Under the pieces are notes generated by a model that made no database searches, was not told the origin of the DNA, and saw only the letters and a list, made by a program, of their open reading frames with translations. 32,000 nucleotides of DNA from Candidatus Iainarchaeum sp. (GTDB lineage Archaea > Iainarchaeota > Iainarchaeia > Iainarchaeales > 0-14-0-20-34-12), in the NCBI GenBank assembly GCA_030649345.1, contig JAUSKK010000008.1, positions 21,533 through 53,532 of the forward strand. The letters are read 5' to 3'. Both the position numbers and the translations under genes were made by a program. Of this stretch, positions 1 to 27,358 are shown piece by piece. The first letter of the stretch is position 1. Each line of letters starts with the position of its first letter.

Positions 1-861
1 AGACTGGATAGGCAATTCCAGGAACTGAATTTTTTCTTTGAGTCTTTTTTCCAGTTTTCTTTTTTTAATTTTATTTATTGAATCCAATTTGTTTCCAGTT
101 ACAATAATGATTTTTCCTTTTTGGTTTAATACTTTTGCAGTCACAGGAATTTCCAAAAATGGGTCTAAAATAATGCGTACTGGATTTCTTCCATTTTTGA
201 TTCTACAAGTCAGTCTTGGATTATCCTGGATAACTGTTTTGACTCCAACCAAAATTCCGTCTAAAGTATTCCGCAATTGATGAACAAATCTTTGTGTTTT
301 TTTCCCATTAATCCAGTGTTCTTTTTGTTCTTTGCTCCAAATCAGTCCATTGGCTGTCATTCCAATTTTTTGCACAATGTACGGTATTCTTGTTTGAATC
401 CATTTCAAATAAGCTTGGTTTATTTCTATGCATTCTTTTTCTAAAATATTTGTTTGAACTTGAATTCCAGCTTTTTTAAGCGCTTGAATTCCTTTTCCTT
501 TAACTTTGGGATTCAGGTCTTTCATTCCAATAACTACTTTCCGAATTCCAGAATTTACAATGGCCGGAACACTGGGAGGCGTTTTTTTTTCTTTTCCAGA
601 ATGAAAACAAGGTTACAAAGAAACATACAGTGTACTTCCTTTTGCTTTGTTTCCAGCTATTTTCAAAGCATTAATTTCTGCATGATTTTCTCCAAACTTT
701 TCATGAAAACCTTTTCCTACAATTTTCCCATTGTTGACAATTAAACAGCCGACCAATGGATTGGTTTGTGTTCTGCCTAAACCTTTCAGAGCTAAATTAA
801 TAGCTAATTTCATAATTTTTTCGTTTTGGTTCAAGAATGCCATATATGTCTCTAAAACCAA
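1..861 (-). pseudogene. ribD: RibD-like riboflavin-pathway deaminase/reductase; 3' end runs off the window; broken by an in-frame TAA at 613-615
   Basis: ORF 613-861 reads ...GFHEKFGENHAEINALKIAGNKAKGSTLYVSL then TAA. My back-translation shows the same frame stays open from 612 to 1. It continues PCFHSGKEKKTPPSVPAIVNSGIRKVVIGMKDLNPKVKGKGIQALKKAG...RFVHQLRNTLDGILVGVKTVIQDNPRLTCR..., i.e. an HAE...PC...C-type deaminase motif followed by a RibD reductase-like region. The second Zn-ligand Cys position is Ser (AGT, 571-573). Confidence 0.6.
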
Positions 862-1640: not shown

Positions 1641-1967
1641 ATGGATGAAAATTTAGATTCATTAAGGCAGCAGCGCATGCAGCATTTGAAAAAAAATGCA
1701 GAAGACAAAAAAAGCCAGCAAGAGCAAGCAATGCAAGCTCAAATGCAAGTGAATGCTTTAATGATTCAGTATCTAGAGCCGGCAGCCAAAGAACGGTTGA
1801 ACAATGTAAAATTAATTAATTCAGAATTGTACGGAAAAGTTGTTCAAACTGTTTTGTATTTGGTGAAAAGCCAAAAATTGAATCGAAAAATAACGGATAT
1901 TGAATTAAAAAAATTATTAACTTTGGCCACAGGTCAAAAACGAGAAATTAAAATTGTAAGAAAATAA
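1641..1967 (+). CDS. PDCD5/TFAR19-type dsDNA-binding protein (archaeal MTH1615-like)
   Basis: Motif ...IQYLEPAAKERLNNVKLINSELYGKVVQTVLYLVKSQKLNRKITDIELKKLL..., and the conserved position between rps19e and rpl39e. Confidence 0.8.
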   Translation: MDENLDSLRQQRMQHLKKNAEDKKSQQEQAMQAQMQVNALMIQYLEPAAKERLNNVKLINSELYGKVVQTVLYLVKSQKLNRKITDIELKKLLTLATGQKREIKIVRK

Positions 1968-2048
1968 ATCAGTAGTGCTGAATGAAATGAAGCACTACGT
2001 TCGACCAACCGGAACCCCGGTTGAGAAGTTAAAATTGTAAGAAAATAA
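1941..2048 (+). repeat. 27-nt direct repeat (1941-1967 and 2022-2048, 25/27 identical) duplicating the last 8 codons + TAA of the PDCD5-like gene around a 54-nt two-hairpin insert
   Basis: CGAGAAATTAAAATTGTAAGAAAATAA versus TGAGAAGTTAAAATTGTAAGAAAATAA. Insert hairpins are GTAGTGC(1972-1978)/GCACTAC(1992-1998) and CAACCGG(2006-2012)-AACC-CCGGTTG(2017-2023). Confidence 0.85.
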
Positions 2049-2068
2049 AAAAATATTGAGGAATCATA

Positions 2069-2356
2069 ATGGCAAGACATAAAACACAAGAATTCAAACA
2101 ATTTGCAATTGCAAAACGCAGAAGTGTCGGAAGTACTTTAAGTGCTGCTCCAGTTTGGACTTTTCAGAAAGCAAATCGCAGATTGTTTTCAAAGACCAGC
2201 AAGCGTACTTGGAAACAAATAGGTATTGGGAAGTTATTTGACGAACAACAACATACTAAAGAAACCCAAGCCATCAAGCATATGAAGCGTTCTTTTTTAG
2301 TCAAAAAAAGAGCACGATTAAATAAGAAAATAAAATCAAAAAAGAAAACAAATTAA
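2069..2356 (+). CDS. rpl39e: 50S ribosomal protein L39e, divergent, with a ~45 aa basic C-terminal extension
   Basis: MARHK...AKRR...APVW...KANRR...SKRTWK fits the L39e pattern MAR.K..AK...PVW..K.NRR...KR.W. Conserved operon position. Confidence 0.7.
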   Translation: MARHKTQEFKQFAIAKRRSVGSTLSAAPVWTFQKANRRLFSKTSKRTWKQIGIGKLFDEQQHTKETQAIKHMKRSFLVKKRARLNKKIKSKKKTN

Positions 2357-2848: not shown

Positions 2849-3508
2849 ATGAAATTTACTAAACAATATTTGAATTCCAGCCCCTACATTGGCGTATTTG
2901 CAGTTACCAGTGAAACGATTTCTTTATTTCCTGCTTTTATTACAAAAAAACAAAAACTTTATTTTCAAGACATTTTGGGAACAGAAATTATTCAAGGAAC
3001 TTTAGCAGGATCGCATTTATTGGGTGTGTTTGCTGTTGGATCGCAAAACAAGTTTTTAGTTTCCAATCTAATTTCAGACAAAGAATTGGATTTTTATAAA
3101 AATCAAGGATTGAAATTAGAAGTCTTAAGTGATAATTTGGCAGTTGGAAATTTAATTGCTTTAAATGATTTTGGAGCAGTTTGTAGTCCTATTTTTTCCA
3201 AAGAAGACATCGCAAAGATTAAATCTTTTTTGGGCACAGAAGTTGTTACTTCTTTGGTTGGAAATCATGATCTAACCGGGGCCAGTTGCAAGGCAACCAA
3301 TGTTGGATTTATTGTAAGTCCTATGGTTACAGAACAAGAATTTAGTGTTTTGCAGAAAACATTAAAGGTAGACGGAATGCGAACCACAGCCAATTACGGT
3401 GATAGATATGTAGGCAATGGATTAATTGCCAATTCAAAAGGCGCAGTGATTGGTGTTCCAACCACAACCCATGAAATGATTCGCATAGATGAAGCATTCA
3501 GAAAATAG
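2849..3508 (+). CDS. eif6: Translation initiation factor 6 (aIF6)
   Basis: 219 aa, NSSPYIGVFAVTSE..., repeated pentein-like segments, conserved position after rpl31e. Confidence 0.9.
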   Translation: MKFTKQYLNSSPYIGVFAVTSETISLFPAFITKKQKLYFQDILGTEIIQGTLAGSHLLGVFAVGSQNKFLVSNLISDKELDFYKNQGLKLEVLSDNLAVGNLIALNDFGAVCSPIFSKEDIAKIKSFLGTEVVTSLVGNHDLTGASCKATNVGFIVSPMVTEQEFSVLQKTLKVDGMRTTANYGDRYVGNGLIANSKGAVIGVPTTTHEMIRIDEAFRK

Positions 3509-3624
3509 GAATGAAATTTGAAGAGATGTACCACAAAATTTTAAATTTTGCGTATATACAAAATCGATGATTTTGTAGTACATCGAAACCGTAGGTTTGG
3601 ATAGACGAGGCATTCAGAAAATAA
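3485..3624 (+). repeat. 24-nt direct repeat (3485-3508 and 3601-3624, 21/24 identical) duplicating the last 7 codons + stop of eif6 around a structured insert
   Basis: ATAGATGAAGCATTCAGAAAATAG versus ATAGACGAGGCATTCAGAAAATAA. The insert carries a long imperfect hairpin, GATGTACCACAAAAT(3525-3539)/ATTTTGTAGTACATC(3570-3584), with inner stem ATTTTG(3545-3550)/CAAAAT(3559-3564). It also carries AAACC-GTA-GGTTT (3586-3598). Confidence 0.85.
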
Positions 3625-3659
3625 GAATAATTGAAACTAATATTTGAAAGGTGAAATGT

Positions 3660-3857
3660 ATGATGAAAAAATTTGAAATGAAAGGATCTTATAAAGAAAA
3701 AAAATCTTGGAAGAAATTTACTAGAACTGTAGAAGCTGTAAGTGAAAAACGAGCCCGAGAATTATTGCAAAGCTTATTAGGTTCAGAACACCAAGTAGTC
3801 AAGCATCATCTTAAAATTGATTCATTGCAAGAAGCTCAAGAAAAAACCGGTGAATAA
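3660..3857 (+). CDS. rplX: 50S ribosomal protein LX (L18Ae/eL20 family)
   Basis: KKFEMKGSYKEKKSWKKFTRTVEAVSEKRARELLQSLLGSEHQVVKHHLKIDSLQE fits the LX pattern F.v.G...F.k.v.A..e..A.E...s.lGS.H......I.I. AGGTGA at 3648-3653 lies 6 nt before the ATG at 3660. Confidence 0.75.
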   Translation: MMKKFEMKGSYKEKKSWKKFTRTVEAVSEKRARELLQSLLGSEHQVVKHHLKIDSLQEAQEKTGE

Positions 3858-11206: not shown

Positions 11207-11446
11207 TACAATAGTATTTCCTTTGGTTTCAATGACGCGTGCATTGCAATCTAAAGCTAGTTTTTCTGCAATTCGTGCTCTATCTGCTTGAAATGTTGGA
11301 TGTACTTTGATTTTGATTAAACTTCTTTTTTCAAACCGGTGTTTTAATTCTCCAACCAAACTTTCGGTTAATCCATTTTTTCCAATTTGAATTTCTGGAA
11401 TAATTTGCATGGCTTTGCTTTTCATTTCTTTTTCAAACTGATCCAT
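11120..11446 (-). CDS. YhbY/CRS1-type CRM-domain RNA-binding protein
   Basis: PEIQIGKNGLTESLVGELKHRFEKRSLIKIKV...DCNARVIETKGNTIVLY. The basic tail overlaps the peptidase gene by 87 nt. Confidence 0.75.
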   Translation of the reverse strand: MDQFEKEMKSKAMQIIPEIQIGKNGLTESLVGELKHRFEKRSLIKIKVHPTFQADRARIAEKLALDCNARVIETKGNTIVLYNPKSKKTKEKQVIQQGRKPKRQNTTH

Positions 11447-11449
11447 AGT

Positions 11450-13598: not shown

Positions 13599-14981
13599 CT
13601 AATAAGATTTTTTTTTGTGCAAATTAAGATGTTCTGTGCGTTCAATTTCTTTCAAATTACTCGGATCGTTGTTGTATTTGTTACCATCAATGTGATGTAT
13701 ATCGTAACCCACTTTTGGCCAACGTCCATGCGCATTTTTCCAGATCCATCTATGGACTGAAGTCTTCTTATCATAATCTTTTAGATCCAATCCCTCTTTA
13801 TAAAAATAATAATAGCCGCCCCAATAAGGATTTACAATAACCAATCTGTTACCTACAAGTTCATACGGAAAGGGTTTGTTCACCCGTTCCCATTCACTAC
13901 TCATATAATTTGCAAGTTTGTATGTTTTAATTTCAAATTTAGCTTTCAGATCGTCAAGCTTTTTTAATTCACTTTCTTTCTTATTATTTTTTTCCCTTAA
14001 AATACTAATTTCATCATCCATTTTTTCAATTTCATACTTTTGTTTTTGTATCTCTGCAGATATTAGTTTTTGTTTTTCAATTAGATTTTTTCTTTTACTA
14101 TATTCAATTGAATGATAACCAATTATCGAAATAACTATTATTATCACTAAGGCAATTATCAAGAATTGCAAGTTATCAAAAAAAATTTTATTATCTTTGT
14201 CCATTTGTAATTTCGTTCTCGCCTCAAGTATTGTTTGAGTTTCTATGCACAAGCCATTGGCATCAATAGCGCCATAAATACACTCTTGTTCACTGCAAAT
14301 TGGTTTGAAACCAATCTCAACACTCTTTTTTTTCACACATAAATTATTGTTGCATGAAACTTCGTCAGTTTTGCAAGTAAATCCTGGAAAAAACTCATTT
14401 TTATTATTGCAAATATTTTCAATACAAAATCCCCCTCCACACTCAGTGCCAATTGTGCAGGTGGCTCCATCATTTAGGCAATTTTTATCTAAGCAAGTTT
14501 TGCAGTTGTCTGTGGTGATTATTTCTTTTTCAGTTTTAAGATATGTAAAATCGTTTTCTAAAATAGTGTATTCTATTGATTCTTGGTTTATTCGAGGGGA
14601 GCTGCCAATACTTTCCCATTCATCTGTTACAACAGATCCGCCTGCTGGAACGTCAAAAACATGACCTGCCTTGTTGCCAACCCGGTTATTCCAATAATAT
14701 GAAATGTCTAATTTTATCGGAGTAATGTAACTATTGTAAATTGTGAATCCAGTGTGGTCGTTTCTAATATAAAAGTCACCAAAACGTATGGGCGTTTTGG
14801 TTATATAGTTATCAGTTATATTTTTGACGAAAATAACTTCATTGTTTTCCTTATTAAATAGTTTTTGTGCATATATTTCTCTTTGTGTTTGGGTAGTGTA
14901 TTGGCAAGCCAATGTCTGCGCTGAAACTATCGGCAAAGATAAAATAACAATCAGTGCTAAAAAAAGAATTTTGATTCGCAT
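13599..14981 (-). CDS. Single-pass membrane protein: signal peptide, Cys-rich ectodomain, TM, coiled coil, C-terminal HNH nuclease domain
   Basis: MRIKILFLALIVILSLPIVSAQ signal. 13 Cys between aa 159-245. TM FLIIALVIIIVISIIGYH (aa 272-289, nt 14115-14168), then KRK. Heptad-like K/E segment. HRWIWKNAHGRWPKVGYDIHHIDGNKYNNDPSNLKEIERTEHLNLH (aa 410-455, nt 13617-13754) matches the HNH_3-type pattern. Confidence 0.75.
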   Translation of the reverse strand: MRIKILFLALIVILSLPIVSAQTLACQYTTQTQREIYAQKLFNKENNEVIFVKNITDNYITKTPIRFGDFYIRNDHTGFTIYNSYITPIKLDISYYWNNRVGNKAGHVFDVPAGGSVVTDEWESIGSSPRINQESIEYTILENDFTYLKTEKEIITTDNCKTCLDKNCLNDGATCTIGTECGGGFCIENICNNKNEFFPGFTCKTDEVSCNNNLCVKKKSVEIGFKPICSEQECIYGAIDANGLCIETQTILEARTKLQMDKDNKIFFDNLQFLIIALVIIIVISIIGYHSIEYSKRKNLIEKQKLISAEIQKQKYEIEKMDDEISILREKNNKKESELKKLDDLKAKFEIKTYKLANYMSSEWERVNKPFPYELVGNRLVIVNPYWGGYYYFYKEGLDLKDYDKKTSVHRWIWKNAHGRWPKVGYDIHHIDGNKYNNDPSNLKEIERTEHLNLHKKKSY

Positions 14982-15037: not shown

Positions 15038-15195
15038 TGCAGCCATCGGGATTCGAACCCGAGTCGCAACCTCTCGCCAAACGAACATAAACGTGAAGAA
15101 GCCGGTCGATCGAGCGTTAGCGAAGATCGTCCTAAAGCGTCAACCGATTTTGCGGTTGTGGAAGGGTCGCATCCTGACCACTAGACTATGGCTGC
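15038..15195 (-). tRNA. tRNA-Gly(UCC) with an 86-nt intron at the canonical 37/38 position (intron 15073-15158)
   Basis: Hand fold: GCAGCCA/TGGCTGC acceptor, GTCT..GGAT D arm, CGACC/GGTTG anticodon stem, loop CTTCCA|A, TCGGG-TTCGAAT-CCCGA T arm, discriminator A. 37 + 86 + 35 nt. Confidence 0.85.
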
Positions 15196-19162: not shown

Positions 19163-19198
19163 TCTATATTTATATAGCCTTCATTATTTAAGTCTTTC

Positions 19199-19317
19199 AT
19201 TTTGCGCGGTTATAGGCTAAATTCATTTTGGTAAGAATGCTTGAAATACTGCGTTTATTAGCCAATTTTGAAATATTGGTGATAATCTAATGTTCTGTAA
19301 GTTAATTTTGCGCGGTT
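19199..19317. repeat. Two exact copies of the 13-mer ATTTTGCGCGGTT (19199-19211, 19305-19317) in the 228-nt non-coding spacer upstream of the RelA/SpoT-like gene
   Basis: Exact direct repeat 106 nt apart. These are the only GC-rich words in an otherwise AT-rich spacer. Confidence 0.6.
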
Positions 19318-25183: not shown

Positions 25184-25254
25184 TGAGCCCGTGGTTTAAT
25201 GGTAGAATGGCGCATTGACATTGCGTCGAAAGGAGTTCGATTCTCCTCGGGCTC
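25184..25254 (+). tRNA. tRNA-Val(GAC), no intron
   Basis: Hand fold: GAGCCCG/CGGGCTC acceptor, GCGCA-TTGACAT-TGCGT anticodon arm, AGGAG-TTCGATT-CTCCT T arm, discriminator A. No encoded CCA. Confidence 0.9.
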
Positions 25255-25377
25255 AACCGTAACCCAGTTGACGTGTTGTGGTGCGATTACACCTTGAGTG
25301 TAATGCACATTAAAACGTGTTCGTTTTAATTGTGCTTTCGTTACACTTCAGCACCACTGCCTTGATAGGTTGATTTT

Positions 25378-26350: not shown

Positions 26351-27358
26351 TTAGATTGCAGTTTTTGCAATTGTGGCTTTTTGAGAAATGCAGGTGTGTT
26401 CTAATGGCATGAAACGACCTTGCCAAGGTCGAAGTCCGGGTCCGATTCCCGGCTCCTGCAAATACTTCTCAAAATTAATTTCTGCGTAATGAATGTCTTT
26501 GTGTCTTGGTACAATTCCTGTTTCTTTGTAAACTTGATATTTGTATAGGTGCTTTGGGTTATTGGGTTTTATTTTTTGAAAGAATTTGTCAATTTCGTTT
26601 CTGTCTAGAATCCAAATTTGTTCTTTTCCAATTTTTGCGTTAAATCCTAAATCTAAAAACATATTCCAAACTTCTTTCAAAAACACTGGATCGTGTGAGG
26701 TTATTTCAATTTGCGCGCTGTGTGTATGATGTCTGTGAAACCCACCGTCTGTGTCAAATAGTCCTCGCAGAAATGCTTTTTTGTATTCAGCTTGTTCATA
26801 AACTTGTTTTGGAATGTGCATTCTTCCTTTTTTATATCCAACCGGAATGCTAAATTCAAAAGCTAAATATTGATGTGCTTTTTTGGATGACAGATTGCAA
26901 TGCACTACATTTCGCTGGTATCGAAACCAAGGTTCTGCTTGAAACAAGTTTTTCATTAATTGTTTTACATGAGATTCAATATAGATTTTGTCTGAAACTA
27001 TTCCTTCTGAAATAATGATTCCATAATTCTCTGTTGTCAAACATCCATCTCCATATACTATTCCAAGGAATTCCGCTAGTTGTTCGGACATTGCAGGTAA
27101 GCTTACTTCATGTGTTCTAAACTTTAAAGTAACAAATTTTAATTTGTTTAAATTAACTGTAATATTTGCTTTTTGTATCAATTTTAATAAATTATTTTGA
27201 GGGATTTTTATAGTTCCTGAGTTATAAAACAAAACTGTTGATCGATTTACTTCTAAGAATTCAGATATTTGAGTCCAAGTCATTCCAATGTTTTGCTTTA
27301 TAGTTTGCAATAGTTTGTGTTGTTCTTCTTTTCCAATATTCAAATATGAGTTATCCAT
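26351..27358 (-). CDS. Free-standing double-motif LAGLIDADG endonuclease-like protein with an N-terminal HTH
   Basis: LAEFLGIVYGDGCL and AFLRGLFDTDGGF motifs. N-terminal TWTQISEFLEVNRSTV HTH-like segment. The last ~36 codons run antisense through the tRNA-like sequence at 26390-26460. Confidence 0.8.
   Translation of the reverse strand: MDNSYLNIGKEEQHKLLQTIKQNIGMTWTQISEFLEVNRSTVLFYNSGTIKIPQNNLLKLIQKANITVNLNKLKFVTLKFRTHEVSLPAMSEQLAEFLGIVYGDGCLTTENYGIIISEGIVSDKIYIESHVKQLMKNLFQAEPWFRYQRNVVHCNLSSKKAHQYLAFEFSIPVGYKKGRMHIPKQVYEQAEYKKAFLRGLFDTDGGFHRHHTHSAQIEITSHDPVFLKEVWNMFLDLGFNAKIGKEQIWILDRNEIDKFFQKIKPNNPKHLYKYQVYKETGIVPRHKDIHYAEINFEKYLQEPGIGPGLRPWQGRFMPLEHTCISQKATIAKTAI
26390..26460 (+). tRNA. 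tRNA-Gly(GCC)-like sequence (possibly functional, possibly degenerate)
   Basis: Hand fold: GCAGGTG/CTCCTGC acceptor (one U6-U67 mismatch), CGACC-TTGCCAA-GGTCG anticodon arm, CCGGG-TCCGATT-CCCGG T arm (C at position 55 instead of U), 3-bp D stem. Confidence 0.55.

Follow-up and report, generated by a model that had tools for sequence, protein, structure and literature searches.

What process could repeat the last codons of a gene a few dozen nucleotides downstream of its own stop codon, and do so twice within one operon? This question is raised by a 32-kb stretch (hereafter, the window) of a metagenome-assembled genome (MAG) of Candidatus Iainarchaeum sp., which presents 33.7% guanine plus cytosine (GC) and very dense gene packing. 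Near its beginning, the window contains a conserved archaeal cluster with all its genes on the plus strand (rps19e, PDCD5-like/dsDNA_bind, rpl39e, rpl31e, eIF6, rplX, pfdA, and ftsY), and the 3′ ends of two of them, the PDCD5-like gene and eIF6, are present in two copies separated by a short insert that folds into two hairpins (inserts E1 and E2, respectively). Our tentative answer, which we hold at a little below an even chance, is that E1 and E2 are DNA insertion elements that fold into hairpins and belong to a small family specific to this lineage, found in either orientation and surviving only where they are harmless.

The PDCD5-like gene (1641..1967, plus strand), supported by its open reading frame (ORF) and by a Pfam match (PF01984) on an identical product, encodes a complete protein of 108 aa with the C-terminus REIKIVRK followed by the stop codon. 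As described in a previous reading of the sequence alone (the sequence-only reading), the end of this gene, CGAGAAATTAAAATTGTAAGAAAATAA (1941-1967), is found again as TGAGAAGTTAAAATTGTAAGAAAATAA (2022-2048), with 25 of 27 positions identical at an offset of 81 nt, and all the coordinates of that description were reproduced. The repeat is best defined at 1942..1968 versus 2023..2049, both on the plus strand, where 26 of 27 positions are identical, and a match as good was found in 0 of 1000 shuffles. Copy 1 constitutes the functional gene end (the last eight codons, TAA, and one further nucleotide), and copy 2 is a non-coding version of it located 20 nt 5′ of the rpl39e ATG. As also noted before, the second copy would read stop-EVKIVRK-stop, compared to REIKIVRK-stop in the gene. 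In addition, copy 2 contains the sequence TTAAAAT around 36 nt before the rpl39e ATG, a possible TATA box that might provide a promoter.

Between these two copies lies E1 (1969..2022, plus strand), of 54 nt, which had been described as a GC-rich insert with two hairpins; its GC content is indeed 50% versus the average of the window, and both hairpins are perfect. The first one (1972..1998) pairs GUAGUGCU with AGCACUAC along 8 bp, leaving an 11-nt loop (GAAUGAAAUGA). The second one (2006..2023) consists of CAACCGG-AACC-CCGGUUG, with 7 bp, is preceded by UCGAC, and abuts copy 2 in such a way that its final base is the first base of this copy. The folding z-score of E1 was -4.5, and none of 200 shuffles gave an equally good fold.

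The same architecture had been claimed for the eIF6 gene (2849..3508, plus strand; 219 aa, PF01912, C-terminus IDEAFRK followed by the stop codon), and our analysis confirmed it, as a 28-nt repeat (25/28 identical) surrounds an 88-nt insert with two hairpins. Copy 1 (3485..3512) includes the eIF6 end, its TAG, and GAAT. It is followed on the same strand by E2 (3513..3600; 31% GC), which folds into a long hairpin (3525-3584), then UCGA, and then a small hairpin, AAACC-GUA-GGUUU (3586-3598), which abuts copy 2 like the small hairpin of E1. Copy 2 (3601..3628) ends 31 nt 5′ of the rplX ATG and shows an AT-rich, TATA-like stretch (AAAATAAG) around 39 nt before this start codon, which could likewise act as a promoter. 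The copies of site 2 differ by GAT>GAC, GAA>GAG, and TAG>TAA, and those of site 1 by ATT>GTT. Both repeats end at or just past a stop codon, and except for the sequence AGAAAATAR, they are unrelated to each other. Small ORFs overlapping the inserts (1987-2040, encoding MKHYVRPTGTPVEKLKL and a stop; 3511-3570, encoding MKFEEMYHKILNFAYIQNR and a stop) correspond to two dissimilar products.

These two repeats were found to be the longest short-range direct repeats of the whole window, with 83% and 85% identity over extended lengths. A search for downstream copies of gene ends detected them in only two of the 42 window genes (23/24 and 21/24, with a background maximum of 17/24), and they were also the only cases when 556 gene ends from 82 loci of related archaea were screened, the highest score elsewhere being 18/24. 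The sequence-only reading was right in regarding the 27-nt duplication as the odd feature.

An assembly or sequencing artefact, for instance a spurious tandem copy created by the merging of strain variants, could be considered at this point, as the copies differ by a few transitions, just as strain variants would, and come from a single MAG. However, the Logan assembly of run SRR13727527 (L002) was 100% identical across both sites, so that two assemblers give the same sequence, even if the reads behind this second assembly may be those from which the MAG was built. Moreover, the interior of the duplication is unique and structured instead of repeating its neighbours, and the architecture is present twice with related inserts. 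We assign to such an artefact next to no probability.

Comparison with relatives gave a picture of the state of these junctions elsewhere. In relatives with 42-44% eIF6 identity (L001, L004), both junctions overlap or nearly abut (<=4 nt), and relatives with 50-52% eIF6 identity present plain spacers after eIF6 of about 115 nt and 69 nt, the latter in the 52% relative, with no duplication. This corresponds to the empty state that the sequence-only reading had proposed to look for in relatives. In the nearest relative (73% eIF6 and 64% PDCD5 identity), the PDCD5 protein (P0032) also ends in REIKIVRK, and the gap between PDCD5 and rpl39e is 173 nt. Because the junctions of the relatives are either compact or plain-spaced, the compact junction appears to be the ancestral state and the duplicated one specific to this lineage. 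A simple tandem duplication of the gene junction was rejected as its origin, as in-register similarity along the whole unit would be expected, and only the first ~23 nt of E1 resembled the sequence that follows copy 2.

The relationship between both inserts is apparent at their ends. At the left end, E1 and E2 share the motif GAATGAAAT(TT)GAAG, whose 9-mer has three occurrences in the window, of which the inserts account for two. At the right end, directly before copy 2, both show the motif TCGA-N0-3-AACC-loop-GGTT. This second pattern gave two matches in the window, corresponding to the two sites, when 0.07 were expected, and in 364 kb of loci from other organisms, it gave no matches, being found elsewhere only in the L002 copies of both sites.

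In addition, a covariance model (R1) was built from E1 alone, without knowledge of other copies, and its match constitutes the sole fully a priori test of the family, the motif patterns having been defined after the sequences were seen. The best non-self match of R1 was located on the minus strand at 25309-25360 (16.2 bits, E=0.014), in the block that follows the tRNA-Val gene. This block, named E3 (25256..25362, minus strand), is a related, larger hairpin block that lies in inverted orientation directly 3′ of tRNA-Val (25184-25255, plus strand), before a cupin gene, and has 107 nt, 44% GC, and a folding z-score of -4.4. The head of E3 (CAGUGGUGCUGAAG..) forms a hairpin homologous to the first hairpin of E1, and the final bases of tRNA-Val are included in its small hairpin, UCAACUG-GGUUA-CGGUUGA. 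When both sequences are set side by side, E3 reads CA-GUGGUGCUGAAG... and ends in this small hairpin, and the corresponding parts of E1 are CA-GUAGUGCUGAAU... and, at the end, CAACCGG-AACC-CCGGUUGA, both sequences having CAGTRGTGCTGAA and the small hairpin in common. No Rfam match was obtained for the E3 block. The search with R1 on the 364 kb of relatives revealed nothing significant, its top match (L059) falling in coding sequence.

The 6-bp hairpin CAACYG-N3-8-CGGTTG was found at three sites of the window when 0.01 were expected, corresponding to E1, E3, and the intron of the tRNA-Gly(UCC) gene. The same pattern gave a single site in the 364 kb of relatives besides the L002 copy of the E1 site. 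That single site, in a relative with 35% eIF6 identity (L037, 6815-6870), is an intergenic block of two hairpins, TATCCCG..CGGGATA and then CAACCG-TCGAAA-CGGTTG. Regarding the tRNA-Gly(UCC) gene (15038-15195, minus strand), which was detected by Rfam and missed by ARAGORN, it is interrupted at the canonical 37/38 position by an intron of roughly 85 nt whose bulge-helix-bulge (BHB) motif is only a relaxed one (3/4 pairs in the central helix), and the small hairpin CAACCG-CAAAAU-CGGUUG (15141..15158, minus strand) corresponds to the first 18 nt of this intron. Since the tRNA-Gly(UCC) genes of eight related archaea are intron-less, the intron is a recent, lineage-specific gain.

As a separate observation, two free-standing genes resembling those of homing endonucleases are present in the window. 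The first one (13599-14981, minus strand) encodes a protein of 460 aa with a C-terminal HNH_3 domain and adjoins the intron-bearing tRNA-Gly gene. The second one (26351-27358, minus strand) encodes a LAGLIDADG_3 protein of 335 aa, and its 3′ end overlaps in antisense the tRNA-Gly(GCC) gene (26389-26461, plus strand).

The copies described above are found in both orientations relative to their neighbours, and therefore they point to a DNA-level element and not to one common cis-acting RNA. This result bears on the possibility that the hairpins are cis-acting RNA structures, involved in processing, stability, or ribosomal-protein feedback (as leaders of rpl39e and rplX), which evolved in place after a tandem duplication of the junction. 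In line with this possibility, the hairpins are located just 5′ of ribosomal-protein genes, the left 23 nt of E1 are weakly similar to the part of rpl39e with the Shine-Dalgarno site and the ATG (16/23 identical when one gap is allowed, p about 0.02; p about 0.01 for the whole insert), and the start of E2, ATGAAATTTGAA, resembles that of rplX. However, the rpl39e leader resembles the head of E1 less than E3 does, the 9-mer AAATTTGAA is frequent here (eight occurrences in the window versus 6.4 expected), the right halves of the inserts are unlike the downstream genes, and the comparison at eIF6 scored below the shuffle mean, worse than most shuffles. Moreover, a repeat identity of 93% beside an unalignable interior does not look like simple divergence, related modules are found in antisense elsewhere, and no Rfam leader reached the threshold. 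Altogether, we consider an origin in place as quite improbable.

A small RNA gene captured between the duplicated ends, another candidate of the sequence-only reading, was not borne out either, given the two orientations of the related copies and the lack of Rfam matches for the inserts at gathering or permissive thresholds; only the tRNAs passed, and the matches in or near the inserts were far below threshold. Inspection by eye and with Rfam led us to reject the idea that the hairpins are C/D box, H/ACA, K-turn, or tRNA-like structures, as neither boxes nor matches were found. A diversity-generating retroelement was discarded too, as the differences between copies are not adenine-specific.

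The presence of the small hairpin of E1 at the beginning of the tRNA-Gly(UCC) intron, together with the use of a splicing endonuclease by this genome that a long tRNA intron implies, could suggest that the inserts are BHB introns themselves, or RNAs excised from the operon transcript by this endonuclease. Broad specificity has been reported for DPANN endonucleases (PMC3239211). To look for such motifs, regions 1900-2090 and 3450-3670 were scanned in both topologies, and an in-register scan (offsets 81 and 116, +/-1) was also carried out. The strict scans detected no hBHBh′ motif in either topology, but they constitute a weak test for relaxed motifs, as they also miss the relaxed tRNA intron of the window itself. 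No in-register splice pairs with a central helix of at least 3/4, an outer helix of at least 4 bp, and an inner helix of at least 2 bp were found, and the self-complementary 4-mer with complementary flanks that is required for in-register splicing between direct repeats was absent. The best candidate (1929/2023) lies out of register, has an outer helix of 3 bp and an inner one of 2 bp, and would shift the frame. In addition, the PDCD5-like and eIF6 genes both reach their stop codon before the insert, so no excision is required for their products and splicing would leave the protein unchanged. Finally, the small hairpin closes E1 on its 3′ side but is located at the 5′ end in the tRNA intron. 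The intron-like element suggested by the sequence-only reading is, in our opinion, scarcely credible. Recoding, readthrough, or ribosome hopping between the copies was rejected because the gap contains three in-frame stops and the protein is already complete.

Under the interpretation that we favour, that of insertion elements, a family of sequences from 50 to about 110 bp, without terminal inverted repeats or coding capacity, would have entered a very compact genome and would have been kept only at harmless places. Such places would be the position directly after a tRNA gene (E3), position 37/38 of tRNA-Gly(UCC), from which the element would be removed as an intron, and the two gene junctions of the operon. 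The insertions in the operon would have been accompanied by a target duplication of 27 or 28 bp, likely through a fixed-length staggered cut followed by fill-in. A long staggered-cut duplication is proposed because two unrelated targets were duplicated to the same length, each of them flanking a member of one insert family. Copy 1 would complete the upstream gene, including its stop codon, and copy 2 would preserve the original context, probably a promoter or a 5′ leader, ahead of the downstream gene. In a genome whose neighbouring genes nearly touch each other, duplication would also be the only way for an insertion to be tolerated at these junctions. The mobility of the elements, the staggered-cut mechanism, the enzyme behind it, and the function of copy 2 are inferred, whereas the duplications and their equal length on unrelated sequences, the hairpins, the motifs common to the copies, the two orientations, and the compact junctions of relatives are observed directly. 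With respect to the miniature mobile element carrying a replacement gene end that had been suggested before, the part concerning the element is now the best supported one, on the basis of the shared end motifs and the two further related sites; as to the replacement end, the duplication of two unrelated targets to the same length (27 and 28 nt) favours a target-site duplication over it.

Several results weigh against a family of insertion elements. In the window, there are only two flanked copies, separated by 1.5 kb in one operon of one MAG, and no flanking duplication was detected at E3 or at the tRNA-Gly intron copy, so the target-duplication model must assume that it decayed at both. The copies resemble each other only in short, discontinuous stretches, BLAST between them gave nothing significant, and the motif patterns were, as mentioned, defined post hoc. 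The loose structural descriptor was unspecific, with ~7 chance matches per shuffled window for the big stem, and exact-pattern scans of viral and metagenome contigs gave no further copies. No transposase, integrase, Cas1, or reverse transcriptase was detected by Pfam scans among 39 window proteins. The inserts also lack terminal inverted repeats, as the ends of E1 (TCAGTAGTGC.. and ..CCCCGGTT) and those of E2 (GAAATTTGAAG.. and ..GTAGGTTTGG) are not complementary. A look-alike at 11340-11376 was rejected as a further copy, as its position within a small YhbY-like gene makes it a coding coincidence. Finally, of the four differences inside the repeats, three are synonymous, a count that is not significant (p roughly 0.05-0.1) but whose bias could point to a past of copy 2 as a coding sequence, as an attachment (att)-type model would have it.

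Beyond these results, a Logan contig extending past the window, reached via the protein at the window end, revealed nothing new. The YhbY-like gene itself (11207-11449, minus strand), encoding a YhbY/CRS1-like small RNA-binding protein (..IGKNGLTESLVGELKHRFEKRSLIKIKV..), occupies what was apparently an intergenic gap of 243 nt and is missed by simple ORF picking.

According to the att-type model, the duplications would be the work of site-specific integrative elements whose attP mimics a gene 3′ end, so that copy 1 would be the end brought by the element and copy 2 the displaced original, the body of the element having been deleted later and only its two ends being left. A rebuilt gene, a direct repeat at the other border, and inherited mismatches are a known outcome of archaeal integrases, among which that of SSV1 leaves a 44-bp repeat at tRNA-Arg, and a mobile element has been proposed as a tRNA intron donor (PMC3293823). 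Most of the differences between copies are synonymous or conservative, in agreement with this model, and the conservation between E1 and E2 is limited to the insert ends. Also in its favour, E3 is located at the 3′ end of a tRNA gene and the fourth hairpin in a tRNA anticodon loop, which are classical sublocations for integration. However, a single integrase cannot use two unrelated cores, which is at odds with the relationship between the inserts and the equal length of the repeats. Both elements would also have to be trimmed to <90 nt with both borders intact, no integrase gene or fragment is present in the window, and neither E3 nor the intron shows a second att copy. We therefore regard this origin as unlikely.

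The lack of a transposase in the window would be accounted for by a one-step templated insertion through replication template switching, similar to fork stalling and template switching (FoSTeS) or microhomology-mediated break-induced replication (MMBIR). In such a case, a stalled fork would have copied a hairpin module and resumed about 27 nt upstream, with no need of a dedicated enzyme. An insertion with a flanking duplication is the signature expected from template switching, perfect hairpin stems are among its typical products, and the inserts resemble modules present elsewhere in the genome. However, it would be fortuitous for two independent events to give 27 and 28 nt and for both to end at a stop codon, no cases were found among >500 gene ends in relatives, and the fact that the small hairpin always abuts the right-hand junction is left unexplained. 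Template switching is thus, in our view, very improbable.

A more ambitious version of the insertion-element interpretation can also be put forward, which we consider doubtful. It would consist of undescribed, tiny double-hairpin mobile elements in a DPANN (Diapherotrites) archaeon, inserted by an enzyme acting as a molecular ruler of ~27-28 bp (Cas1/casposase-like or other) and landing harmlessly in the last codons of essential genes, one copy of which would have created the tRNA intron at 37/38.

The evidence base is formed by four short sequences from one MAG. If the interpretation as insertion elements is true, a compact archaeal genome would be able to absorb insertions inside an essential ribosomal operon, where the long duplication regenerates the gene end and keeps the upstream signals of the neighbour, and these sequences would represent a new class of small archaeal elements, with duplications of the length of CRISPR repeats or casposon targets and without known enzyme signatures. 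The tRNA-Gly(UCC) intron, sharing a module with intergenic elements, provides a testable case for the origin of archaeal tRNA introns, and if both the mobility and the creation of the intron are true, small DNA elements would be linked directly to archaeal intron birth. If the interpretation is wrong, we would be left with two curious, isolated mutational scars.

The remaining genes of the cluster surround these sites on the plus strand. Upstream of the PDCD5-like gene is rps19e (1010-1609), and downstream of site 1 is the rpl39e-like gene (2069..2356), assigned from its ORF and its conserved operon position, with no Pfam match. The corresponding protein has 95 aa, ~2x what is usual, and its C-terminus is extended by a long basic segment; that of the nearest relative was called at 85 aa. 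This gene is followed by rpl31e (2375-2815), and rplX (L18a/LX; 3660..3857, PF01775) is the gene located downstream of site 2. At the beginning of the window (1-861, minus strand), a RibD-like deaminase gene shows an in-frame stop (..YVSL-stop-PCFHSG..) at the Glu position of the conserved LEPC motif, whose second Cys is also missing, so it is likely a pseudogene or the result of a base-calling error. Finally, a GC-rich direct repeat, TT(C/A)ATTTTGCGCGGTT, was found at 19196-19211 and 19302-19317, with a spacing of 106 nt, in the divergent intergenic region beside a gene with a RelA/SpoT domain, and its two copies may constitute a pair of operator sites.

How do these sites compare with known systems? 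In archaea, the only long target duplications (14-35 bp) known to us at the 3′ end of genes are those of casposons. CRISPR adaptation, for its part, duplicates a full repeat of about 24-37 bp. With casposons and Cas1-Cas2 integration, our sites share a long, fixed-length target duplication, and the 27 and 28 bp found here fall within the range of 14-35 bp described for archaeal casposons, whose targets are the 3′ ends of genes for tRNAs and proteins (PMC4779613). Casposons prefer the 3′ end of tRNA genes or of one protein gene, which results, as at our sites, in a duplicated end and an intact gene. In contrast to casposons, E1 and E2 have neither terminal inverted repeats nor Cas1 or PolB, no Cas1 is encoded in the window, and their size is 54-88 bp versus kilobases. 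Compared to CRISPR spacers, the inserts are too long, mutually related, and structured, and a CRISPR mini-array does not fit either, as the repeats of the two sites are unrelated, except for AGAAAATAR, and the "spacers" would be of 54 and 88 nt versus about 30-45 nt.

Integrative elements resemble our sites in the reconstituted gene and in the direct repeat of the gene end at both borders. The rebuilding of a target gene 3′ end is also produced by e14 and phage 21 at icd of E. coli. In archaea, the integrases of SSV1 and of pNOB8-type elements act at tRNA genes, where the target gene is rebuilt, the displaced direct repeat remains at the other border, and mismatches are inherited (PMC3293823). 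However, such elements are kilobases long, encode an integrase, and use one specific core each, whereas here we found 54-88 nt, no integrase, and two unrelated cores of equal length.

Small hairpin repeats, such as MITEs (miniature transposable elements with inverted repeats), repetitive extragenic palindromic (REP) sequences and bacterial interspersed mosaic elements (BIMEs), Rickettsia palindromic elements, and mitochondrial double-hairpin and repetitive hairpin-forming elements, are likewise tiny, non-coding, and hairpin-forming, and occupy rare non-coding niches in both orientations. Unlike our inserts, MITEs have terminal inverted repeats and target duplications of 2-10 bp, and we know of no duplications of 27 bp associated with REPs or double-hairpin elements. 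Only three to four related copies are found here in 32 kb. Hairpin elements that invade the mitochondrial genomes of sponges have been described (PMC2800124). With respect to archaeal BHB introns, the newly gained tRNA intron at 37/38 begins with one member of our family, a kind of gain for which mobile DNA has been proposed as the source (PMC3293823), but the borders of E1 and E2 have no BHB, both lie outside the reading frame, and their excision would have no coding consequence.

In conclusion, the separate parts of this system, small hairpin repeats and gene-end duplications at insertion borders, are of known kinds, and it is their combination that is, to our knowledge, new, being absent from the literature consulted, with double-hairpin inserts of 54-88 nt without inverted repeats, duplications of 27-28 bp that rebuild the ends of essential genes in a ribosomal operon, and a module that is also part of a newly gained tRNA intron.

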